64,000 bases of DNA, taken from an uncultured Roseicyclus sp. (GTDB taxonomy: Bacteria; Pseudomonadota; Alphaproteobacteria; Rhodobacterales; Rhodobacteraceae). Below the pieces are notes generated by a model, which saw nothing but the letters and a program-made list of their open reading frames with translations, was not told where the DNA came from and did no database searches. Shown here one piece after another: positions 8,963 to 47,673 of the stretch (positions are counted from its first letter, which is position 1; each line of letters opens with the position of its first letter). The translations under genes were made by a program, and so were the position numbers. The stretch covers positions 3,151 through 67,150 of the forward strand of contig CAYWTM010000004.1 of NCBI GenBank assembly GCA_964460185.1. Direction: 5' to 3'.

Positions 8963-10081
8963 TCAGCCACCGATCCGGACGTGGGTGTCGGTATCGAACA
9001 AGACAGCCTTGTCCATGTTCACGGCAAATTCAAAGGCCTGTCCCGGATGGACATCGGCATCCGCACGCATCCGCGCGACGCAATCCTTGCCCGATATCGT
9101 GGTGCTGACAAAGGTATCGGCACCAGCGGGTTCCGTCACGCTGACCGTATTGGTGAAGGACTGGATATTTCCCGCGTTGCGGTCGGCGCCTTCGGGGTCG
9201 GTGATCGCCTCGGGGCGAATGCCAAGCATCACGTCCTTGTTCACGTAGGACCTGTAGGCCCCCGTCGGGTCGTCCATCCTGAGATGCATGACCTGTCCTT
9301 CGGCCCCTGAGATCTCGGCATGCAGCGCGCCGTTCATATCGACCAGTTTGGACGATATCACGTTCATCGACGGCGACCCCATGAACGTCGCAACGAACAG
9401 GTTTGCGGGATTGTCGTAGATCTCTTTCGGGGTGCCAAGCTGCTGGACGTAACCGTTGTACATGACCGCGATCCGGGTGCTCAGCGTCATCGCCTCGATC
9501 TGGTCATGGGTCACGTAAACAATGGTTGTGCCCAGCTTTTGGTGCAGTTTCTTGATCTCGGTCCGCATGTCGACGCGCAATTTCGCATCCAGGTTCGACA
9601 GCGGCTCGTCGAACAAGAACACATCCGGATTGCGCACCAGCGCCCGACCCATGGCCACACGCTGGCGCTGACCACCCGAAAGCTGACCCGGCTTGCGGTC
9701 CAGCAGGTTTTCGATCTGAAGCAGCTTGGCCACATCGCCCATGGCCTTGTCGCGGTCCGCCTTGGGCGTGCCATGCATTTCGAGGCCAAAGGTGATGTTC
9801 TGACCCACCGTCATGTTCGGGTAAAGCGCGTAGGACTGGAACACCATCGCGATGTTGCGCTTGGACGGGTGCACCCCGTTCATCACGCGATCCTTGATGG
9901 CGATCTCGCCCGAGGTGATCCCCTCAAGCCCGGCGATCATGTTCAGAAGCGTGGACTTGCCACAGCCGGACGGGCCCACGAGGACAAGGAACTCGCCCTC
10001 CTGAACCTCGATGTTGACGTGGTGCAGAACCTCCACCGCGCCGTAGGATTTGGTGACGTTGTTGATGTCGAGAAAACCCAT
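8963..10081 (-). CDS. sugar ABC transporter ATP-binding protein (UgpC/MalK-like)
   Basis: Walker A GPSGCGKST, signature LSGGQRQR, Walker B FLFDEP. Confidence 0.95.
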   Translation of the reverse strand: MGFLDINNVTKSYGAVEVLHHVNIEVQEGEFLVLVGPSGCGKSTLLNMIAGLEGITSGEIAIKDRVMNGVHPSKRNIAMVFQSYALYPNMTVGQNITFGLEMHGTPKADRDKAMGDVAKLLQIENLLDRKPGQLSGGQRQRVAMGRALVRNPDVFLFDEPLSNLDAKLRVDMRTEIKKLHQKLGTTIVYVTHDQIEAMTLSTRIAVMYNGYVQQLGTPKEIYDNPANLFVATFMGSPSMNVISSKLVDMNGALHAEISGAEGQVMHLRMDDPTGAYRSYVNKDVMLGIRPEAITDPEGADRNAGNIQSFTNTVSVTEPAGADTFVSTTISGKDCVARMRADADVHPGQAFEFAVNMDKAVLFDTDTHVRIGG

Positions 10082-10084
10082 GGG

Positions 10085-10969
10085 TCAGCCTTTCACAGAA
10101 CCGGCCATCAGACCGCGGACAAAATAGCGGCCCGCGACGATGTACACGAGGAGGGTGGGACCGGCGGCCATGATGGCGCCCGCGAAATGCACGTTGTATT
10201 CGCGCACACCCGTGGAGGAGTTGACGAGGTTGTTGAGCGCCACCGTCATCGGCGCCGCGCCGCCCGACGCAAAGGACGCGCCGAACAGGAAGTCGTTCCA
10301 GATATTGGTGAACTGCCAGATGCAGCAGACCGCGATGATCGGGCCCGAGCTTGGCAGCATGATCCTGTAGAAGATCTGGAAAAATCCGGCCCCGTCGATC
10401 TGCGCCGCCCGAACCAGTTCGGTCGGGAACGCGGCATAGTAATTGCGGAAATACAGGGTCGAGAACCCGATGCCGTAGACCACGTGAACCAGGATCAGGC
10501 CATAGGTCGTGCCCGCGATATCCAGAATTCCAAGGATCCGCGCCATCGGGATCAGCACGATCTGGAACGGAATGAAGCACGAGAACAACAGCAGGCCAAA
10601 GATCCACGTCGCCCCGCGAAAGTGCCACTTCGTCAGCACATACCCGTTCAGCGCCCCAAGCACGGTCGAAATTGCGACCGCGGGCACCGCCATCGCGATG
10701 GAATTGATGAAATAGGGCCGCAGGCCGGTCGGCTCCACGCCGATCTGGGCGGTGGACCATGCCGACAACCACGGCTCGATCGTCCATTGGCGCGGCAGGG
10801 CAACCATGTTGCCGCCGGTGATCTCTTCCAGTGGCTTGAGCGAGTTCACCAGCATGATCCCGAAGGGCAGCAGGTAGAACAGCGCGAACAGCAACAAGAC
10901 AAGATAGATCAGGGCCCGCGAGACGTTCGAGGATCGGATTGCATTTTCAGTCGATGCGGCAGCCATCAC
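10085..10969 (-). CDS. carbohydrate ABC transporter permease
   Basis: Multi-TM protein with the binding-protein-dependent transport EAA-like loop (AAQIDGAGFFQIFYRIMLP). Confidence 0.9.
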   Translation of the reverse strand: MMAAASTENAIRSSNVSRALIYLVLLLFALFYLLPFGIMLVNSLKPLEEITGGNMVALPRQWTIEPWLSAWSTAQIGVEPTGLRPYFINSIAMAVPAVAISTVLGALNGYVLTKWHFRGATWIFGLLLFSCFIPFQIVLIPMARILGILDIAGTTYGLILVHVVYGIGFSTLYFRNYYAAFPTELVRAAQIDGAGFFQIFYRIMLPSSGPIIAVCCIWQFTNIWNDFLFGASFASGGAAPMTVALNNLVNSSTGVREYNVHFAGAIMAAGPTLLVYIVAGRYFVRGLMAGSVKG

Positions 10970-11874
10970 TTCTTCTCCCGCAATTCGGCATAGAGATACG
11001 GCACCATGATCGCGGCAATCGTCATCAGCATGATCACGGCCGACGAGGCACCGATCCCCATCTGGTTCCGGGTGAACGTGTACGAATACATGAAGGTCGC
11101 AGGCAGCGCCGTGGCATTGCCGGGGCCGCCCCCCGTCAAGGCGATCACAAGGTCATAGGACTTGATCGCAAGGTGCGACAGGATCACGAAGGCCGACAGG
11201 AACGCCGGGCGCAGCTGTGGCAGGATGATCCGCCGATACAGGTTCCAGTTCGATGCCCCATCCATTTGCGCGGCCTTCAGGATCTCGTTGTCGATCCCGC
11301 GCAGCCCGGCCAGAAACATCGCCATCACAAAGCCCGAGCTTTGCCAGACCGCGGCGATGACGATGGTGTAGATCGCCATCTCGCGATCCTTGATCCAGTT
11401 GAAGGTGAAACTCTCCCACCCCCACAGATGCATGGTGTTCTCAAGCCCGATCGCGGGGTCCAGGAACCATTTCCATGCCGTCCCCGTCACGATGAACGAC
11501 AGCGCCATCGGATACAGGAAGATCGGGCGCAGGATGCCTTCGCCCCGGATCTTCTGGTCCAGGAAGATCGCCAGCATCAGGCCGATGACCGTGCTGATCG
11601 CGATGTAGAGCCCCGCGAAGATGGCAAGGTTCCTGACCGCGATATCCCATTCGCGAACCCGGAAGAGGCGGTCGTAATTCTGAAAGCCGACCCATTCGTA
11701 GGACGGCAACATGCGGCTGTTGGTGAAGCTGAGATAGATCGTGAAGGCGATGAAGCCGTAGACGAAGATCACCATCACGGCAAAGGACGGTGCAAGCACG
11801 ATCTTGGGCAGCCAGTTTTGCAAACGCGTGCGGAAATCCACGCCCGTGTCATGCCCGGCGTCGGTTACGGCCAT
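10966..11874 (-). CDS. carbohydrate ABC transporter permease
   Basis: EAA loop AAQMDGASNWNLYRRIILP. The ATG at 11874 is preceded by a GGGGAGGGGG RBS; the longest ORF runs to 11922. Confidence 0.9.
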   Translation of the reverse strand: MAVTDAGHDTGVDFRTRLQNWLPKIVLAPSFAVMVIFVYGFIAFTIYLSFTNSRMLPSYEWVGFQNYDRLFRVREWDIAVRNLAIFAGLYIAISTVIGLMLAIFLDQKIRGEGILRPIFLYPMALSFIVTGTAWKWFLDPAIGLENTMHLWGWESFTFNWIKDREMAIYTIVIAAVWQSSGFVMAMFLAGLRGIDNEILKAAQMDGASNWNLYRRIILPQLRPAFLSAFVILSHLAIKSYDLVIALTGGGPGNATALPATFMYSYTFTRNQMGIGASSAVIMLMTIAAIMVPYLYAELREKK

Positions 11875-11973: not shown

Positions 11974-13224
11974 TTACATCGCCAGTTCCACGGCGGTCAC
12001 CATTTCGGCGGCCGCGGTTTCAGCGTCGTATTCCCCGTTGAAATGCGCGGTGATCACGTCATACATCGCGTTCTGCACGGACGGGTTGTTGGCGTGGCCG
12101 TGGGCCATGGAACCAAACAGGGTGCCGTTCGCGCCGGCCTCTGCCAGCTGCGCCATGCCAAGCTGGCCGCAGGCATCGAACGAGGCCGGATCGATATCGG
12201 TCCGCGCGGGAACCGAACCCTTGACCACGTTGAACGCAATCTGGAACTCGGGGCTCAACACGGCCGAAGCCATCGTGACCTGAGAAGCTTGCGCCGCAGG
12301 ATCAGAGACGTTGAACATCGCGAACTGGTCCGAGTTGAAGGTCACGGTGCCTTCGGTGCCGGGCACGCGGAAGCACTGGAATTCCTCACCAGCGGTCTGA
12401 CCCGCGTTCACGAATTCGCCCTTCGCCCAGTCACCCATGATCTGGAACAGCGCATCGCCGTTGATGACCATGGCCGATGCCAGGTTCCAGTCACGACCGG
12501 AGAAGTTGTCATCGACGAAGCCACGCAGGGTTTCCATGCGCTGGAACGCTTCGACCATCAGGTCCGAGCCAAGCGCTTCGGGGTCCAGATCGACCATGGA
12601 GGCCTGGTAGAACTCGGGACCGCCGACGCCCATCACCATCGAATCGAAGATGGTGGCGTCCTGCCAGGCCTGACCGCCATGGGCCAGCGCCGTGTAGCCC
12701 GCATCCTGCGCGGTCTGCATGGCAGCGACGAATTCATCCCAGGTGGTCGGCTGGGAAATGCCCAGTTCTTCCATCAGCGCGGTGTTCGCCCAGACCCAGT
12801 TGGTCGAGTGCACGTTCACAGGTGCCGCAACCCAATGACCATCATAGGTCGAGAACCGCTGCAGCGCCGCGGGAACCACGTCGTTCCAGCCCTGCTCGGC
12901 CGCCAGGTCATCAAGGTTTGCCAGCGCGCCTTCGGCGGCCCAATCCTGGATCGAGAAGCCCAGCATCTGAACGGCGGTCGGCGGATCGCCTGCGGTGACA
13001 CGCGCACGCAGAACGGTCATGGCGTCAGAGCCACCGCCACCTGCGACGGGCATGTCGGTCCAGCCGATGCCGCCGCCGGCCAGGTCTTCGCGCAGAACGT
13101 TCAGAGCGGCAGCTTCACCGCCCGACGTCCACCAATGCAGAACCTCAACGTCCTGTGCCGCGACCGCAGTGGTCGACAACGCCAAAACCGCTGCTGTCAT
13201 GTGCAGTTTCTTCATCATGGTCAT
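11974..13224 (-). CDS. ABC transporter extracellular sugar-binding protein
   Basis: Signal peptide [22 protein letters not shown]. 416 aa family-1 solute-binding protein, located upstream of the permeases. Confidence 0.9.
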
Positions 13225-39802: not shown

Positions 39803-40126
39803 TCAACGCGCGCCTTGTGTGCTTTCTCCGACACGGTCAGGCGCGCTGGGCGAGGGGAGCAAGTCCATTTCCGCCTCCAGCATGCCCAGGCCCTTCGGCT
39901 TCTTTTCCCGGTATCGGATGATGCGTTTGAGTTTGGGAAAATGCGACCAGTCCCACGACGAATAGCTGCCGCCCATCGCCACCGAAATCTTGCGCATCGA
40001 AAAGCCGAAGCGGTCTTCGCACACGACCTCGACCACGGTGCCCGGCTGGACGGGGCAGCCCTTGCCATCATGGATGATCCAGGGGCCCCAGTCTTCGCCG
40101 CCGTCATGCTTCCAAGATGTCGCCAT
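39803..40126 (-). CDS. hypothetical 107-aa protein
   Basis: High GC3 in this frame. No recognisable domain. Lies 147 bp downstream of the dynamin operon on the same strand. Confidence 0.55.
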   Translation of the reverse strand: MATSWKHDGGEDWGPWIIHDGKGCPVQPGTVVEVVCEDRFGFSMRKISVAMGGSYSSWDWSHFPKLKRIIRYREKKPKGLGMLEAEMDLLPSPSAPDRVGESTQGAR

Positions 40127-40273: not shown

Positions 40274-41599
40274 TCAGGCTTCCGCATCGAATGCCCGGCA
40301 CATCCGGTTGAGCGATATCTGCGCAAGCCCGGAGCTTACGACCGACGCATCCACAAGGATGAAGACAAGCCCGACATCCGGGATGACCTGAAACAGCAAC
40401 CGGTGCTTGTGCATCGACAGGTTCAGGGATGAAACTTTCCCGCGCATGTCGGAAACGCCGAAGGCCGTGGTGAGGCGGCGCAGGGTTTCGTCACACAACA
40501 TCCCGAGTTCGCGGCACGTCGTTTCGTCACCTGCCAAGACTTCGGATGCATCCGGCGCAGAAAACAGCGTCACGCCCACGGCACGGGCCCCCGCCAGGTT
40601 GCCGGCCATCTGCCTCAGACTATCCGTGACATCTGCCACGCCCGGGCCGGACTGGTTGGCCCGTGGTGCCGCGATCCTGGCTTTCGGCGCCTCAACTGGC
40701 GTCGGCTTGGGGTCCGGGGCGACGCCAGCCATATCCTCCGCGATATCCGGAACGTCCGCTGTGGCATCCTCCACATCGGGCGCGCCATCCCCCGAGGCCA
40801 CCGACCGGGCGCGGAATTCAGCGATGTCGCAGATGTCACCCGCATCGCCCGCAGGACGCGCCGGGGCTTCCTCGAGAACCGAACCCGGGTTGCGGATCCC
40901 CGGGCCGAAGGACCGGATGGTCGACAGGATTTCAGGCGCGCCCGTTTCGATCCAGACATCTTCGGAACCGGCGGCGGCGTCGATGGTCTGGCGAAACCCA
41001 CACACGAAGATACAGCTGTCGAAATAGGGGCCGGTTTCCCTGACCAGGCGTTCCCTGAGGCGGCGTCGGTCACGGGCGGTGCGCAGCTTGTCTGCCCTCG
41101 ACACCGCCAGGATCCCGTGTCTTGGGCGGGCATCGCCCAACTGCTCGACGATGCTCTGTTCCGTCAATCGCCAGGCCTGGGATGCGATGGTAACCCAGAT
41201 CATGACATCGCAAGACCCGATCAGGCGGCACTGTGCCTCGGTCAGATCCGAGGCGGTCGTCAGCGGCACTTCAACCAGTTCGACCCCGACAAGATGCGCC
41301 TGATCCGTCCAGAGTTGCACCTTTGCGGCGCCGCGAAATACATCGGGGTCCGCAGCACCGTCACACCTCGTGTGCTGGCCGTCAGCATCGTGAATGTCCA
41401 GACCCGCCTGTGCACGGTACGACGCAACGATGACAGGCCGGCTGTCGCGGCCGACATTGTCCGGCAGGACCCGCGCGCGCAGCAGTGCGTTGAGAACCGT
41501 GGACTTTCCCGAACTGATCTCGCCGCACACGGCAACCTTGAGCACCGGCCAGTTGTTGGTCCGCGCCGCATCGTCGATGACGGTCTGCTGTGTCGGCAT
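40274..41599 (-). CDS. short dynamin-family GTPase with degenerate G3 and a C-terminal Roadblock/LC7-like domain
   Basis: P-loop GEISSGKSTVLNALL. G4-like SRAD. The G3 position reads EVPL instead of DTPG. The last ~110 aa align by pattern to the standalone Roadblock protein (HRLLFQVIPDVGLVFILVDASVVSSGLAQISL versus LHLIRPLASNPAIFLYLAVERKTANLGMARLAL). GAGGAT RBS before ATG 41599. Confidence 0.8.
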   Translation of the reverse strand: MPTQQTVIDDAARTNNWPVLKVAVCGEISSGKSTVLNALLRARVLPDNVGRDSRPVIVASYRAQAGLDIHDADGQHTRCDGAADPDVFRGAAKVQLWTDQAHLVGVELVEVPLTTASDLTEAQCRLIGSCDVMIWVTIASQAWRLTEQSIVEQLGDARPRHGILAVSRADKLRTARDRRRLRERLVRETGPYFDSCIFVCGFRQTIDAAAGSEDVWIETGAPEILSTIRSFGPGIRNPGSVLEEAPARPAGDAGDICDIAEFRARSVASGDGAPDVEDATADVPDIAEDMAGVAPDPKPTPVEAPKARIAAPRANQSGPGVADVTDSLRQMAGNLAGARAVGVTLFSAPDASEVLAGDETTCRELGMLCDETLRRLTTAFGVSDMRGKVSSLNLSMHKHRLLFQVIPDVGLVFILVDASVVSSGLAQISLNRMCRAFDAEA

Positions 41600-41610
41600 T
41601 GCGGATATCC

Positions 41611-43731
41611 TCAGGCGGCTTCGGGCAGGTCGGATCGGGACAGCGCGCTGTCAAGCGCCGACAGGTTCAGCAAAAGACGTTCCAGCACCTCCATTCGGCT
41701 TTGCAGACGCCGGACCAGATTGGCCCGCATCTCGGGATCATGGGCGATCTTTTCCATCTCGGCCTTGTCCTGCTTCAATCGAAGAGTGTGTTCGGCAAGG
41801 CTGTCCTCGACCATGCGCAGCATGACCTGAATCCGTGACATGCCTGCTGTCGCGCGTTCCACCTGCGCCTCGTTGAAGGCCGCAAGGATCTGCTCGACCG
41901 ATGGTCTCAATTCGGCGGCGGCAATCAAATGCAGGGCGGCGAGTGACCTCTCGATATTGACCGTCCTTTGGCGCCAGAACGCCCAGCCGCGATCTGCGAT
42001 CAGCCCCGCGCGCAGGGTCCGCCTTGGCAGGGTCAGGGTCGACATGAACTCTGCATAGGGCAGATCGTCCAACGCGATGTTCTCGGACGGGTCCTGGAAC
42101 TTGTCCTTGATGGCGTGGCGGCAGGCATGGATGCAGTTGTTCAGCGCGACATCCGTGGCGGCCCGCGATTTTTCATAGTATCGCAGCACGTCCCTTTCGA
42201 TCGCGAACTGAAGCGGTGTCGTCTCGATCTCCAGCGCCTTCGTGGCCTGGCCCCGGACGGACGATCTGAACAGGTGTTCCTCAAAGACCGCCTTCTGGCT
42301 TTCCACGAAGGTTTCGATCGACGACAAAAGCTTCCCTTCCAGACTGGTCCAGGATTTCGTCACCACCTTTTCGATCTGCAGATCAGCGGCTTCGACATGC
42401 GCGGCGATTTCTGACTGCACCTTGCGCATGCTTGCGATTTCCGACTCGAGTTCTGCAGCGGCGGCTTCGGCGATGTCGGCCCGGATGCTTTCCACCTGCA
42501 ATTGCAGGGCGTCACGGTTGCGTTTCGCCACGAACTGCGTGCCGGTCAGTTCTGCGCGGATGTCGCCCAGAAGCTGACCCAGCTGCCTGGTCCCGACACC
42601 GTTGTCGATGATCTCCGACAGCGTCGCCTTGACCTCATTCAACCCGGAGGCCAGCAGCAACCGCTCGGCCCGATCGTTCGGAACATGGCCATGCCTGGAC
42701 CGGATATACTCCGCCAGTTCGGGCGTATCCACGGATGCCCGGGCCGCTTCCACCTCGTCGTCATCACGCATCACGAGATCGGCCAGATATGCGCTGCCTG
42801 CCACGATCTTGAACTCGATGTCCGGGATGGCATCGCGCAACCGGCGCGAAACATCCGCCATCACCCGGGGCACCTCGGTGCTGTAGTCATCCAGTTCGTC
42901 GATGCGGTTCACATAGATCAACACATCTTTCGCATCCTGCTTTGCCAGAATGCGGATCAGCGCAACGTCGACCTCGGTAAGGGGTTGATGCGCAGACAGA
43001 ACAACGATGAACACATCCGATTTGTCCAGGCTGCGGCAGGTGAATTCATCGCGCACAAGGAACGGATCGTTCACGCCGGGCGTGTCCGTGAGTATGGTAG
43101 GAACCTGAAAATCAGGCACCCGCAAATACAGATTGGCCACCTTGGTCAGGGCGGCATAGCGGCCCAGCGACTTGTCATCCAGATCATGGTCGGATCCGGG
43201 GCCGGCACAAACATATCGCTTCAACAGATCGGGCGTCAGGAAATCATAGTCGTGCTTGCTGCCAAGCAGGGTGTGATAGTAATTTCCCAACCGCTTCTTG
43301 GCGCGTTCGCGCATCTCTTCGCTCTGCCGTTGCAGAAGATCGGTGTCGAACCCCGGCAAGAGCTGCTCGGTCAGTTTGCGGACCTTGGAGCCGCCCGACA
43401 TGATCTCTTGCCAGTCCTTTTCATCAAAGAATTCGAACCGCGCGCCGAATGACGGATCCTTGGGCAGGTTTATCCGAACATTCGTCACCACCGACGTCCA
43501 TGGGTTCACGTCCGAGGGCAGAAATTCGTGCTGTTCCAGGAAAGCATTCAGAAAGGTCGATTTACCGGCCTTGACCTGCCCGATCACGGCGACCTTGGCA
43601 GCCCATTGATCCAACCGCTGCCTGAGGTCCTGGAAATTCTGCCACGTCTTGCGGTCAACCATGGTTTGCAGGCGGTCGAGCGTTTCACGCAGGAAATCCA
43701 GCTCTCTCCGCTGATTGGGCGCGATCTTCAC
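41611..43731 (-). CDS. long dynamin-family GTPase (bacterial dynamin-like protein)
   Basis: G1 GQVKAGKSTFLN, G3 DTPGVND, G4 NRID, then a long helical stalk. The GTG start overlaps the upstream stop (GTGA). Confidence 0.9.
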   Translation of the reverse strand: MKIAPNQRRELDFLRETLDRLQTMVDRKTWQNFQDLRQRLDQWAAKVAVIGQVKAGKSTFLNAFLEQHEFLPSDVNPWTSVVTNVRINLPKDPSFGARFEFFDEKDWQEIMSGGSKVRKLTEQLLPGFDTDLLQRQSEEMRERAKKRLGNYYHTLLGSKHDYDFLTPDLLKRYVCAGPGSDHDLDDKSLGRYAALTKVANLYLRVPDFQVPTILTDTPGVNDPFLVRDEFTCRSLDKSDVFIVVLSAHQPLTEVDVALIRILAKQDAKDVLIYVNRIDELDDYSTEVPRVMADVSRRLRDAIPDIEFKIVAGSAYLADLVMRDDDEVEAARASVDTPELAEYIRSRHGHVPNDRAERLLLASGLNEVKATLSEIIDNGVGTRQLGQLLGDIRAELTGTQFVAKRNRDALQLQVESIRADIAEAAAAELESEIASMRKVQSEIAAHVEAADLQIEKVVTKSWTSLEGKLLSSIETFVESQKAVFEEHLFRSSVRGQATKALEIETTPLQFAIERDVLRYYEKSRAATDVALNNCIHACRHAIKDKFQDPSENIALDDLPYAEFMSTLTLPRRTLRAGLIADRGWAFWRQRTVNIERSLAALHLIAAAELRPSVEQILAAFNEAQVERATAGMSRIQVMLRMVEDSLAEHTLRLKQDKAEMEKIAHDPEMRANLVRRLQSRMEVLERLLLNLSALDSALSRSDLPEAA

Positions 43732-45236
43732 GGCTTTCTCCTATTCACCACATGCTGCACAAGCGCGTGGGCCACATCTTGATGTGTGTCATCGCGACGT
43801 GGCGCACCTATGGCCGGGGCGTTCTGCTGTCCGTCCAGTGTCACGATCAGCTCTTCGACGCAGCTCAGCACCATGTCGGCATCGGCGAGATCGACACCGC
43901 GCACCAGGTCTTCCCAGATGGATCGCGCGGTTGCCGGTTGCACGACGTCCGGGGGCGGTGACACGGCTGGCGCTTCTTCCTCGGAGGCGAGGGACACCAG
44001 GAGATGCACATTGTCTGCAATGCTTGTATCGAACTCGGGGTCCGCCTCGGGGCCAAGGTCATCCTCCGTCGCGACCGTTGGCTCGATGACCTCTTCCTGC
44101 TCGGCCTCAGGCTCGGCAGCCTCTTCCGTCGCGACCGTTGGCTCGTCAGCCTCCTCCTGCTCGGCCTCAGGCTCGGCAGCCTCTTCCGTCGCGACCGTTG
44201 GCTCGTCAGCCTCCTCCTGCTCGGCCTCCGGCTCGTCCCACTGCAAGCCGATCAGCGCCGCCAGAAGCGATTGTTCCGGGTCGCTCGCAGTTTGCGCCGC
44301 ATCCTCTTCGGGATGTCGTGCGACGATCTGCGGTTCGGTCACCTCATGATGCGCCGGGGTTTGAGATTGGGCAGCGTCTGGCGGAACGCCGGGTGGGGCC
44401 TGCTCGATAATGGTTTCTACTCTCGGCGCGATGGTGCCGGCGCTCACGCGCCGCGGGATCACGCGCCGGGGTATGACCGGCGTTCTTGCCGCCGCCCGTC
44501 GGAACACCTCGAAGACATCCGCGATCTGTTCGGAGGTCTGTTCCAAAGGCCCAAAGCCCTGCGTCAGCGTTTCAAGATGCGCTCGGATCGTCGCGATGTC
44601 ACCCTCGTCCAACAGCGACGCCATCAGGAAGTGTTTGAAATAGAACTCCGCGTCGCGGCGAACCCGGCGCAGGACCCGATCACCGGCACGTTCGTCCGGC
44701 AAACGGTCGGCGTGGGTCATCAAGAGCGTCGCGTCGAAAAGCAGGCGATCGGGCATTTCATTCCAAACCGACTTTTCGCTTTGCCGCCAGGCCTGGGTCG
44801 CATTGGTGCACCAGATCACCGCGTCCGCGTGATCCAGCATCCATTCCCAGCTCTGCGTGGGTATGTTCGGATCCGATGTGCCGGGCGTGTCGATGATATC
44901 GCAGGCTTCCAGGATCGGCGCGGGATGCGACAAGATGCAATACCGGGTATCATCGACCGTGACGCTATCCAGAGACGCGACTTCCCGGGTCTGGCCATCC
45001 AGACCGACCGTCATGCAGAACCTTTCGCCCGCGATCAGCCAGACCGGCGGCAACGCGGTGGCGGTCACGTTGGACGGCAGAATGCGCTCTCCCAAAAGAC
45101 CGTTGATCAACTTGGTCTTTCCGGCGCTGAATTCGCCCGCGACCATCAGCCTGGGCTTGCGGCCGCGCTTTTGGCCTTCTGATGCGTCCATGCCGCCGTC
45201 TTGCGCGGTCTCGGGTGTGGTGCCCATGTATGTCAT
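43728..45236 (-). CDS. short dynamin-family GTPase with an acidic tandem-repeat region
   Basis: G1 GEFSAGKTKLIN, G3 DTPGTSD, G4 THAD. Contains EPEAEQEEADEPTVATEEAA repeats. The ATG overlaps the upstream stop (ATGA). Confidence 0.85.
   Translation of the reverse strand: MTYMGTTPETAQDGGMDASEGQKRGRKPRLMVAGEFSAGKTKLINGLLGERILPSNVTATALPPVWLIAGERFCMTVGLDGQTREVASLDSVTVDDTRYCILSHPAPILEACDIIDTPGTSDPNIPTQSWEWMLDHADAVIWCTNATQAWRQSEKSVWNEMPDRLLFDATLLMTHADRLPDERAGDRVLRRVRRDAEFYFKHFLMASLLDEGDIATIRAHLETLTQGFGPLEQTSEQIADVFEVFRRAAARTPVIPRRVIPRRVSAGTIAPRVETIIEQAPPGVPPDAAQSQTPAHHEVTEPQIVARHPEEDAAQTASDPEQSLLAALIGLQWDEPEAEQEEADEPTVATEEAAEPEAEQEEADEPTVATEEAAEPEAEQEEVIEPTVATEDDLGPEADPEFDTSIADNVHLLVSLASEEEAPAVSPPPDVVQPATARSIWEDLVRGVDLADADMVLSCVEELIVTLDGQQNAPAIGAPRRDDTHQDVAHALVQHVVNRRKP
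44041..44236 (-). repeat. 60-bp in-frame tandem repeat (about 3.3 copies)
   Basis: 44101-44160 and 44161-44220 are identical. 44041-44100 is a diverged copy, followed by a partial fourth copy. Encodes a 20-aa acidic unit. Confidence 0.95.
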
Positions 45237-47191
45237 GCCGAAAGCTTCTTGTGTTCGGGGTCCAGAACGCCGCCGTCCCCCTTGGAGCGCTCAAAGACCG
45301 CTTTGCAGAACCTTGCCTGATCCATTGCAAACGCGTCGACAATCGCACGCGTCCGTTCGACGGCAGGATCGAAAACGTCATTGATGAGATCGTCGATCAA
45401 TGGGCTCGTCTCGGCCAGAATTACGGCCTCATATCGCTTGCGCGCCTTGCTCACGGCACCGAAGCGCCAGTACTTGCGCCACCATGGCCCCTGCAGATCC
45501 AGTGACAGCGTCCGCGCCAGAATGGTGGGCGGTTTTTCTGCGGGTTGTTCGGGAAAATCGACCGTCCCGCCATCGCGGAAAACACCCAGATCGTTTTCGA
45601 GTATTTCCTGAACGCCATCGAGTAGGATATCGAAGGCGATCTCACCCTCGCGCCGCAACTTGGCGCAGCACGACGTGAAAGCGGTCTTCATCATCATCCG
45701 CAACACGGTTGGGTCGTGGTTCCAGGATCCGATTTCGCCAAAGGCCTCGATATGGGCCTGAAGGGCCTCGAGGGCGGACGCCAGAAAGGTGGTCTGTGCC
45801 CGTTCCAGCCGCCCGCGCAGCATGTTGCGCAATTCGTCGGCATTGGTGTCGAGACTGTGAAGGGCCTTGTCCCGCAGATCAGAGAGCTGTGCGTTGAGCT
45901 CAGCCGCCGACAGGTTGCCCGGAGACGCAAGCTTGACGTTCTTCTGGTCCGCCAGGTTCTCGACGGTTTCGCTCATCTCGATGATCATGTTGATCTCGTT
46001 CTGAACGTCATTGAGGATCGCCGATCCCGGCCCTTCGATCACCCGGCGGGCGATGGCCCTCAGCAATTCATAAACCCCCGAGGCCTCCATCGCGCGGGTG
46101 CGCAGCAGTTCGGGGTCAGACGTGTCGTCGCCATAGAGATGCGCCAGGGCGGCGCGGCTTGCGGGGGCCATGACCGCCGTGGGGTCGATGGCGCAATTCG
46201 CCCAGTATCCGCTGCCGAACAGGATCTGGACCTCTTCACCCAGGCCCAACCGCTTGAGCGTTTTCTCGATGGACGCGCGGATCTTTTCCTTCTCGCCTTC
46301 GGGGTCTTCCAACTCGTCGATGCGATTGACGAAAATCAGGACTTCGCGGGCTTCGACGCTGCAGATGATCCGCAAAAGCGCGACATCCATGGTCGACAGG
46401 GCCTGGTGCGCCGACAACACGACAACACAGACCCGACTGTCGCTGATCGCGTTCAGCGTGATCTGTTCACGCATCATGAAAGTGTCGTTCACACCCGGCG
46501 TGTCCCGCAGGCACAAGCCTTTTGGCAGATAAGGCAGATCCAGATATAGGTCGGCCGATTTCGTGATATCGGCAAAAACCCCTTCCAGGGTGCCATCGGC
46601 CGGATCATCGGGATCACCGTAGCAGATGTAGCGATTGATCGTGTCTTTCTTCAGATCCGGAAAGACATGGCTTTTTCCAAGCAGTCGTTCGAATTCATCG
46701 CCCAGCCTGGCCTCGGTCGTCTGGCGCATCTCGCTGACCTGCAAACGAACCTCTGCCGCTTCCGTCGCAAAGCCGGCCCGTTCTGCCATCTCGCCAAGAC
46801 GCCCGCCGGTTGCCACCAGCCGATCCCATTCATGCGCATCAAAGAACCGGAACAACGCCCGTGTGTTCAGGGGGCGATGGCGGCTGTTGAGATGCAGGGC
46901 CGTGATGACGGACGTCCAGGGATTCACATCCGACGGCAGCATCTCCGTTTGCCCGACCAGCGCGTTGAGCAGCGTGCTTTTGCCTGACTTGACCTGTCCG
47001 ATGATGCTGACCGACGGCTCGAAGGCGTAGATCTTTTCGATGACCCGCTCGATGGGTTCTTCCACAAAGGTGAGCGCCGTTTCCGAAAACTGCTTCAATG
47101 CGCGTTCGAGCGTGTCCAGCCGCTCCCACAGTGCATTGAGTTCTTCGAATCCTTCGCGGTGCTTTTCGAAATTGGTTTCGGCGCGGGGCAT
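45233..47191 (-). CDS. long dynamin-family GTPase (bacterial dynamin-like protein)
   Basis: G1 GQVKSGKSTLLN, G3 DTPGVND, G4 NRID. Start ATG at 47191 with a GGGAGA RBS; the longest ORF runs to 47233. Confidence 0.9.
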   Translation of the reverse strand: MPRAETNFEKHREGFEELNALWERLDTLERALKQFSETALTFVEEPIERVIEKIYAFEPSVSIIGQVKSGKSTLLNALVGQTEMLPSDVNPWTSVITALHLNSRHRPLNTRALFRFFDAHEWDRLVATGGRLGEMAERAGFATEAAEVRLQVSEMRQTTEARLGDEFERLLGKSHVFPDLKKDTINRYICYGDPDDPADGTLEGVFADITKSADLYLDLPYLPKGLCLRDTPGVNDTFMMREQITLNAISDSRVCVVVLSAHQALSTMDVALLRIICSVEAREVLIFVNRIDELEDPEGEKEKIRASIEKTLKRLGLGEEVQILFGSGYWANCAIDPTAVMAPASRAALAHLYGDDTSDPELLRTRAMEASGVYELLRAIARRVIEGPGSAILNDVQNEINMIIEMSETVENLADQKNVKLASPGNLSAAELNAQLSDLRDKALHSLDTNADELRNMLRGRLERAQTTFLASALEALQAHIEAFGEIGSWNHDPTVLRMMMKTAFTSCCAKLRREGEIAFDILLDGVQEILENDLGVFRDGGTVDFPEQPAEKPPTILARTLSLDLQGPWWRKYWRFGAVSKARKRYEAVILAETSPLIDDLINDVFDPAVERTRAIVDAFAMDQARFCKAVFERSKGDGGVLDPEHKKLSA

Positions 47192-47316
47192 GTAGCACGT
47201 CTCCCTGGCAGGGGGCGTGCCAGGGCGCGGCACGCATCTATATGAGCAGCGGTCAGTTCAAAACCTCTCCCCCCTGCGCGTCAGATGAGCTGCGCAAAGG
47301 GGGTTCCCAGGGCCTT

Positions 47317-47673
47317 TCAGACCTTGAGCGTCCCTTCGACGGTCTTCAGCGCAAGACGGGCCATGCCCAGGTTCGCTGTCTTTCGTTCAACCGCCAGGTA
47401 CAAGAAGATCGCCGGGTTCGACGCCAAGGGCCGGATCAGGTGCAATTGGGTGCCAAGCGTGATGAGGAAGTCCTCGATGTAATCATCGAGGCCAAGTGCG
47501 GCCAGGGTTGCGTTCTTCGCCCGCACCACTTCTGTGTTGGCCGCTCCGGCGGCTTCGAGGTCGAACTTCGTGCCCGACGACTCGGACGCCAGCATCAGCC
47601 CGGATTCACTGTCAACAAGGCAGGCCCCGATAAAGCCTGTGGTGTCGCGCAGATCAGAGATATCCGTAGACAT
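47317..47673 (-). CDS. Roadblock/LC7 (MglB-like) domain protein
   Basis: 118 aa. GFIGACLVDSESGLMLA...NTEVVRAKN...IEDFLITLGTQLHLIRPL...FLYLAVERKTANLGMARLAL matches the remembered bacterial Roadblock/LC7 pattern. Confidence 0.8.
   Translation of the reverse strand: MSTDISDLRDTTGFIGACLVDSESGLMLASESSGTKFDLEAAGAANTEVVRAKNATLAALGLDDYIEDFLITLGTQLHLIRPLASNPAIFLYLAVERKTANLGMARLALKTVEGTLKV

Follow-up and report, generated by a model that had tools for sequence, protein, structure and literature searches.

A dynamin-like GTPase with a predicted C-terminal Roadblock domain, encoded in one operon with a free MglB-like Roadblock protein

What would a Roadblock domain be doing at the end of a dynamin-type GTPase, and why would such a protein be encoded together with a free Roadblock protein? 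Dimers of Roadblock or longin domains are considered to be the original platform on which small Ras-like GTPases are regulated, as in MglB, Ragulator, TRAPP and SRX, and to our knowledge bacterial dynamin-like proteins have no dedicated regulators. The question is raised by a gene cluster in a 64,000-nucleotide stretch of DNA (the window) from an uncultured Roseicyclus sp. (contig CAYWTM010000004.1). A preliminary description, drawn from the sequence alone, had proposed that a 441-amino-acid GTPase ends in a Roadblock-like domain, that a standalone 118-amino-acid Roadblock protein is encoded nearby, and that the two recall the Rag GTPases and Ragulator of eukaryotes. Both open reading frames (ORFs) exist as claimed, on the minus strand at 40274-41599 and 47317-47673. 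They belong to a six-gene operon, on the same strand throughout, that comprises the Roadblock gene, two pairs of a long dynamin-like protein and the short GTPase that comes after it, and a companion protein of 107 amino acids. The 118-amino-acid protein is the product of the first gene and the 441-amino-acid protein, the second of the short GTPases, that of the fifth.

We are almost certain that the 441-amino-acid protein consists of a G domain (approximately residues 1-240; 40880-41599), an acidic disordered linker (residues 241-323; 40631-40879) and a C-terminal Roadblock-fold domain (residues 324-441; 40277-40630), to which we refer as the tail. An AlphaFold2 model of the tail built from a 27-sequence alignment has a mean predicted local distance difference test (pLDDT) score of 93.2 and a predicted template-modelling (TM) score of 0.86. 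Its elements follow the order alpha-beta-beta-alpha-beta-beta-beta-alpha, with helices at 2-11, 36-57 and 100-117 and strands at 15-22, 29-34, 68-72, 76-83 and 87-94 of the model. When this model was compared with PDB structures by Foldseek, the best 50 matches were all chains of the Roadblock superfamily (probability 1.00, TM 0.5-0.73), including MglB, LAMTOR/Ragulator subunits (TM up to 0.73 against LAMTOR chains), Asgard Roadblock proteins, dynein LC7, MglC and 6nzd_G, a chain of the RagA-RagC-Ragulator complex. The E-values are modest (about 2e-3) and the list of matches is uniform. By its predicted structure, residues 324-441 have the Roadblock/LC7 superfamily fold, as had been proposed, and the domain begins at position 40630 rather than 40600, about 10 residues upstream of the start first given.

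The last 118 residues or so align in register across 30 full-length homologs, with a mean identity of 34% in the tail family. Among the same homologs the linker is very variable in length and cannot be aligned. In the window it is 83 residues long and, as the preliminary description had noted, rich in Asp, Glu, Ala and Pro (19 A, 11 D, 11 P and 6 E; net charge -10).

The free 118-amino-acid protein gave an AlphaFold2 model with a pLDDT of 91.1 and the same order of elements as the tail. Its best Foldseek match in the PDB is MglB (6izw_C, E=1e-7), TM scores reach 0.78, and the best 50 of 132 matches at E<=1e-3 are MglB, LAMTOR and Asgard Roadblock chains. Homologs are named roadblock, LC7 or MglB by NCBI and JGI, the mean identity of the family is 71%, and the gene adjoins GTPase genes in 29 loci. 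These data agree with the standalone Roadblock protein of the earlier proposal and identify the modelled protein as MglB-like. MglB works as a Roadblock dimer that is bound 2:1 to MglA (PMC9481161), and we take this arrangement of one GTPase with two Roadblock modules, rather than Ragulator, as the nearest functional parallel to the free protein.

Both Roadblock modules escape the usual domain models. Neither the tail nor the free protein matched Pfam Robl_LC7 (PF03259) at E<=1, and no Roadblock match to either was found in Pfam, NCBIfam or PADLOC; some Roadblock proteins are known to be missed by the Pfam Roadblock model (PMC4316618). Similarly, phmmer and profile searches of PDB sequences with the two families returned nothing meaningful and found no solved Roadblock structure. 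When 1.84 billion representative proteins were searched exhaustively with a profile from the tail alignment, only 83 were recovered. Nearly all of these have 370-590 amino acids and are matched at the C-terminus, and no canonical Roadblock was reached. Because this search recovers only the fusion family, the tail appears to be a narrow and fast-evolving subfamily that occurs essentially only as a GTPase fusion. With the tail invisible to Pfam, and with database names limited to 'dynamin family protein' or 'hypothetical', the architecture is currently unannotated.

How are the two Roadblock modules related? BLASTP gave no alignment between the tail and the 118-amino-acid protein at E<=100. The preliminary description had paired segments of the two (HRLLFQ with QLHLIRP, LVFILVD with IFLYLAV, and SSGLAQISL with ANLGMARLAL), and these pairs fall on the predicted beta4, beta5 and alpha3 elements of both models. 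Profile-profile comparison with hhalign aligned window-type tails with the free Roadblock family in that same register (P=0.0067), and the value became P=0.0016 when bridging sequences were added. Among 10,070 ORFs, a hidden Markov model (HMM) of the tail also picked out, again in register, the free Roadblock ORFs from two loci (E=8e-5 and 5e-4).

Much closer similarity is found in two deeper-branching loci, L048 (Limibaculum) and L051, which encode orthologous GTPases that keep the family motifs (E.P. in place of DxxG, and TIASQAWRLSEK). The C-terminal 105 residues or so of these proteins match the free-Roadblock HMM end to end, with E-values of 8e-18 and 4e-16. They are 31-34% identical to the free Roadblock protein (BLASTP 3e-18), hhalign assigns them a probability of 98.7% (E=2.4e-16), and the L048 tail is 34% identical to its own neighbouring free Roadblock protein by BLASTP. 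Because the L048 and L051 tails match the free-Roadblock HMM, the fusion of a Roadblock domain in the lineage of the 441-amino-acid GTPase is shown by sequence comparison as well as by structure prediction. The tail of the window's protein is most simply explained as a highly diverged paralog of the free MglB-like family that arose by duplication and fusion; it may descend from the fusion seen in L048 and L051 or from a second one. The two families have diverged unequally (mean identity 71% in the free family, 34% in the tail family), as paralogous heterodimers typically do.

The G domain was also found to be of the kind first proposed. It matches Pfam Dynamin_N above the Pfam cutoff (4.5e-10, residues 22-66 only) and gave no match to Gtr1_RagA in Pfam. 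In a profile search of the PDB, the family profile matched the bacterial dynamin-like protein BDLP of Nostoc (2j68), mitofusins and Cj-DLP2 (5owv_C), the alignment to Cj-DLP2 extending over positions 18-238 and thus over the whole G domain. These matches indicate a G domain that is dynamin/BDLP/mitofusin-like and not Rag-like. The helical neck or stalk and the membrane paddle are lacking, and the chain beyond approximately residue 240 consists of nothing but the linker and the Roadblock domain. The other short GTPase of the operon, of 502 amino acids, is a paralog that likewise has no stalk and is about 30% identical in the G domain.

Across approximately 50 members of the 441-amino-acid family, the G1 motif GxxxxGKS/T (the P-loop) and the G4 motif [ST]RxD are kept. 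In all of them the G3 motif DxxG is replaced by E-[VILM]-[PSA]-x, which has no Gly and in the window's protein reads E-V-P-L (at residues 106-113), and the switch-I Thr is not conserved. All paralogs of the 502-amino-acid type retain DTPG. Since the P-loop and the G4 Asp are kept and the switch-II DxxG is lost, the 441-amino-acid protein probably binds nucleotide without canonical hydrolysis, as a pseudo-GTPase-like or partner-dependent subunit.

What might such a subunit do with its Roadblock domain? Roadblock proteins often form heteromeric platforms with GTPase-activating protein (GAP) or guanine nucleotide exchange factor (GEF) activity (PMC9481161), and for Asgard Rag-like fusions of a G domain to a Roadblock domain, dimerisation by way of the latter is predicted (PMC10933270). 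By analogy, it is plausible that the tail heterodimerises with the free Roadblock protein. We propose that the tethered, diverged Roadblock domain would pair with the free 118-amino-acid protein through the usual alpha2/beta3 dimer interface and so form a pseudo-symmetric heterodimeric platform, analogous to MglB2, MglB/MglC, LAMTOR2/3 or the C-terminal domains of Rag proteins. This platform would dock on a G domain of the system, which could be its own, that of the canonical short GTPase or that of a long dynamin-like protein, and we infer that docking would set the nucleotide state or the assembly of the two long dynamin-like proteins, which would do the membrane work. We give this complete mechanism an even chance of being correct.

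The most serious competitor, which we nevertheless consider unlikely, is that the two modules never touch. The tail would then dimerise the 441-amino-acid pseudo-GTPase with itself, and the free protein would be an MglB-like homodimer acting as GAP or GEF on the canonical G domains. Homodimers are what MglB and several Asgard and bacterial Roadblock proteins form in crystals (PDB matches; PMC9481161), and the far stronger constraint on the free family could reflect contact with several G domains. The distribution of the two modules across genomes bears on the choice between the heterodimeric platform and separate homodimers.

Searching reference genomes (a collection of 185,579 species genomes), we recovered 64 loci, mostly from Rhodobacterales and Neomegalonema. 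Cultured bacteria that carry the system include Thioclava pacifica, Roseivivax marinus, Tropicibacter naphthalenivorans and Actibacterium ureilyticum. The four-GTPase gene order is conserved among them. The free Roadblock gene is located immediately upstream in 22 loci, as it is in the window, and downstream in four, and a reduced form with one Roadblock, one long dynamin-like protein and one short GTPase is present in three. In 48 loci both modules could be evaluated with HMMs, the absence of the free gene being judged within 10 kb only. Tail and free gene occur together in 29 of these loci, the tail occurs without the free gene in 5, and both are missing from 14; no tail-less locus has the free gene (0/14). 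One locus scored as tail-less, L016 (a Paracoccaceae metagenome-assembled genome, JASJAR010000016), in fact bears a variant Roadblock-like end. Its homolog of the 441-amino-acid protein (9986-11833) has 615 residues, in which the G domain is followed by a dual-specificity-phosphatase-like insert with the motif HCHAGHGRTG (CX5R) and then by a C-terminus that matches the free-Roadblock HMM with E=1.7e-4; no free Roadblock gene is nearby.

A quick distance tree (neighbour-joining) was made from the neighbouring long dynamin-like protein, and on it the loci with neither module group into just two clades. One of these is nested within lineages that have both modules, and there the tail, the free Roadblock gene and the gene for the 107-amino-acid companion were lost together. 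The association of tail and free Roadblock is real but rests on about two events. The lack of any free gene without a tail and the joint loss in the nested clade are not what modules acting separately would lead one to expect.

A further argument for partnership comes from relatives of the free protein in other phyla. Members of its subfamily, 49-61% identical, are encoded on plasmids or megaplasmids of Acinetobacter, Methylomagnum, Streptomyces, Ralstonia, Hymenobacter and Deinococcus; at this level of identity the subfamily spans Alpha-, Beta- and Gammaproteobacteria and Actinobacteria. In the plasmids of Acinetobacter (L068) and Streptomyces (L070) the gene adjoins that of a separate protein recognized by Pfam as Robl_LC7, and the Streptomyces cluster also holds a DUF4388-like protein. 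On the Ralstonia megaplasmid (L071) an unknown protein comes first, followed by a small Ras-like GTPase, then a Robl_LC7 protein and last the 118-type Roadblock protein. Clusters of these types are often flanked by transposases; the plasmid context in Methylomagnum was uninformative. By analogy, they resemble the published 'Group 3 MglA' systems of one MglA and two MglB proteins (Wuichet & Sogaard-Andersen 2014, PMC4316618). The recurring unit would be a GTPase, a Roadblock A and a 118-type Roadblock B, with Roadblock A fused to the GTPase in the window. This recurrence therefore provides a Rosetta-stone-type argument that the tail and the free protein are partners, and it counts against homodimers that act separately, given that the subfamily is encoded with a second, different Roadblock protein. 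Of the homolog clusters, only that of Ralstonia has a Ras-like partner; the four GTPases of the window operon are all of the Dynamin_N type.

Several observations weigh against the heterodimeric platform. Roadblock homodimers of the MglB kind would fit most of the data equally well. Crown-group tails, including that of the window, are only weakly similar to the free protein (P of about 0.002-0.007). Five tail-bearing loci (L002, L025, L036, L038 and L039) have no free Roadblock gene within 10 kb, a finding that favours separate homodimers: the tail can exist without an adjacent partner, whose gene could be elsewhere in the genome. On the tree the co-occurrence comes down to about two independent events, which makes the nominal Fisher p (2e-8) too strong. 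Finally, four-GTPase clusters that lack both tail and free Roadblock persist in Neomegalonema and one other clade, which makes the Roadblock parts an accessory of the dynamin core.

A different kind of alternative concerns the biological role of the system and is compatible with all three Roadblock arrangements considered here: the whole cluster might be an anti-phage defence system of the Eleos/LeoABC type, with the Roadblock parts as its sensor or regulator. The 666-amino-acid long protein has a weak LeoA-like match in PADLOC (51.6 bits) and the 706-amino-acid protein has weak LeoBC/LeoA-like matches. Recovery of only 64 loci from so large a collection would suit a defence system, as would the mobility of the cluster: of the flanking genes tested, only the 107-amino-acid ORF is conserved, which means that the cluster moves as one block. 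In addition, some homologs of the free Roadblock protein are encoded on plasmids beside transposases and restriction-modification genes. However, the PADLOC scores of the two long proteins are low (26-52 bits, E 1e-6 to 2e-14) and compatible with generic dynamin homology, the cluster is surrounded in the window and in L002 by metabolic or housekeeping genes and not by defence islands, and no nuclease or other effector domain was found. We consider a defence role improbable.

The third arrangement, cis-regulation, in which the tethered Roadblock domain is an intramolecular lid or an element like a guanine nucleotide dissociation inhibitor on its own degenerate G domain or on a partner long dynamin-like protein, and the free protein competes with it or relieves it, seems to us improbable: a flexible linker of 80-plus residues is long enough for intramolecular docking and, of the two paralog families, just the one that bears the Roadblock domain has a degenerate switch II, but tail-less members from Neomegalonema share the same degenerate G3, and the G3 change is therefore independent of the tail.

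Returning to the heterodimeric platform, we offer a broader idea only tentatively and think it somewhat doubtful as a whole. Roadblock dimers may regulate the dynamin superfamily as well as Ras-like GTPases, with the tethered-plus-free heterodimer, as a bacterial platform of the Ragulator/MglB kind, gating via a pseudo-GTPase subunit the nucleotide cycle or assembly of a pair of dynamin-like proteins that remodel membranes. No dedicated regulator module of bacterial dynamins would have been described before this one. The module may have been recruited from the widespread systems of one GTPase and two MglB proteins that plasmids carry in several phyla.

The remaining genes of the operon provide the setting for such a module. 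On the minus strand the five genes for the 118-, 666-, 502-, 706- and 441-amino-acid proteins follow one another in this order and are tightly packed. Long dynamin-like protein A (666 amino acids, 45233-47233) matches Dynamin_N at 2e-15 and has the canonical G3 sequence DTPGVND, and long dynamin-like protein B (706 amino acids, 41611-43731), which is 35% identical to protein A, matches at 1.3e-15. Both are full-length dynamin-like proteins with long C-terminal regions. Near residue 590, protein A has an aromatic-basic loop, GPWWRKYWRFG, which may bind membrane. The 502-amino-acid protein, short GTPase A (43728-45236), has a canonical dynamin-like G domain (Dynamin_N 2.5e-10), an acidic repeat linker and a C-terminal helical motif, so that all four large proteins of the operon match the Pfam domain. 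The start codon of the 502-amino-acid gene lies on the stop codon of the 666-amino-acid gene (a 4-base overlap at 45233-45236), and the start of the 706-amino-acid gene lies on the stop of the 502-amino-acid gene (4 bases, 43728-43731). These overlaps suggest translational coupling of the long and short GTPase genes, and the two pairs of long and short proteins look like a tandem duplication.

The C-terminus of the 502-amino-acid protein (43728-43860) was considered as a second Roadblock end and rejected, as it has only a conserved motif of about 35 residues (AR.LW..L...D..D...VL.CVE.LL..LD, in about 40 loci) and no match to the tail or Roadblock HMM. Its linker has 215 residues with a net charge of -41 and carries three tandem copies of an acidic unit of about 20 residues (EAEQEEADEPTVATEEAAEP; approximately 44052-44240, minus strand). 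Membrane anchoring of the operon proteins was rejected as well, because no transmembrane segment is predicted in any of the six.

The Trp-rich 107-amino-acid companion (39803-40126, minus strand) is encoded 147 bp downstream of the 441-amino-acid gene. Homologs are present in 22 loci at 53-69% identity, always next to a homolog of the 441-amino-acid gene and usually on the same strand (inverted in five loci), and in every evaluable locus the gene occurs with both the free Roadblock gene and the tail. No match was found in Pfam or NCBIfam, and all 54 homolog clusters are named 'hypothetical protein'. No upstream riboswitch or other regulatory RNA was matched in Rfam at E<=0.1. A scan for consensus sigma-70 promoters found none. 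Pfam detected no MglA homolog among the operon proteins.

Individual loci show other arrangements of the system. Pseudogemmobacter hezensis carries two versions in one genome (L007 and L037), a three-gene form with free Roadblock and tail and a four-GTPase form with neither, and so provides a natural contrast between the two inside a single genome. Locus L031 has two free Roadblock paralogs (11221-11655 and 12048-12413) downstream of the tail-bearing GTPase gene and none upstream. On a plasmid of Rhodobacter sp. CZR27 (L072, 817-8844), four 'dynamin family protein' genes are directly followed by one for a sensor histidine kinase; no free Roadblock gene is present in the 816 bases upstream to the start of the record, and the sequence across the circular origin was not checked.

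The operon covalently joins a Roadblock domain to a G domain that is of dynamin type and probably impaired in hydrolysis, and it also supplies a free partner of the MglB kind. The partnership of Roadblock proteins and GTPases thereby reaches a second GTPase superfamily. The operon offers a genetically compact handle on the switching of bacterial dynamins. It is also a useful example of the same design, a G domain with a Roadblock domain, assembled independently. In the literature that we searched there was no dynamin-Roadblock fusion, no Roadblock partner for bacterial dynamins and no work on this cluster in Rhodobacterales.

Among known systems, the polarity module MglA/MglB (and MglC) resembles the window operon in the structure of the free protein, which is closest to MglB, and in the logic of one GTPase with two Roadblock modules. 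It differs in that the GTPases of the window are dynamin-like and not Ras-like, and in that one Roadblock is fused through a long acidic linker. The actinobacterial conservon (CvnA-D/Mfp; PMC4316618, PMC13015309) likewise encodes a Roadblock/LC7 protein and a GTPase as a regulatory pair. Conservons, however, have a histidine kinase, a DUF742 protein and a Ras-like GTPase, and neither dynamin-like proteins nor a fusion. Bacterial dynamin-like proteins that act in pairs include Nostoc BDLP, Campylobacter DLP1/DLP2, Bacillus subtilis DynA, LeoABC and IniA/IniC. The window shares with these the tandem paralogous long proteins in one operon and a G-domain affinity to BDLP, mitofusin and Cj-DLP2, but it adds a stalk-less short GTPase after each long protein, one of which ends in a Roadblock domain.

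A hallmark of Rag GTPases is the dimerisation of two paralogs that each combine a G domain with a Roadblock domain. The Rag/Gtr proteins with Ragulator/EGO, and the Asgard G-Roadblock fusions (PMC10933270), have in common with the 441-amino-acid protein a G domain followed by a C-terminal Roadblock domain, together with free Roadblock proteins as potential docking partners. These features of the Rag-like layout first suggested for the locus, domain order and a free Roadblock protein in the operon, hold. The G domain is instead of the dynamin/BDLP clade with a degenerate G3, a Roadblock domain is present in just one of the two short GTPases (the 502-amino-acid paralog has none), so that there is no Rag-type pair, and a disordered linker of about 80 residues contrasts with the compact packing of G domain and C-terminal Roadblock domain in Rag proteins. 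The preliminary description had also missed the context provided by the two full-length dynamin-like proteins, the second short GTPase and the 107-amino-acid companion. The analogy with Rag is one of convergent layout and not of descent. Because its type of G domain differs and paired G+Roadblock paralogs are lacking, the 441-amino-acid protein should not be filed under the Rag family, and because its G3 is degenerate and it has no stalk, it should not be filed under the canonical dynamins either.

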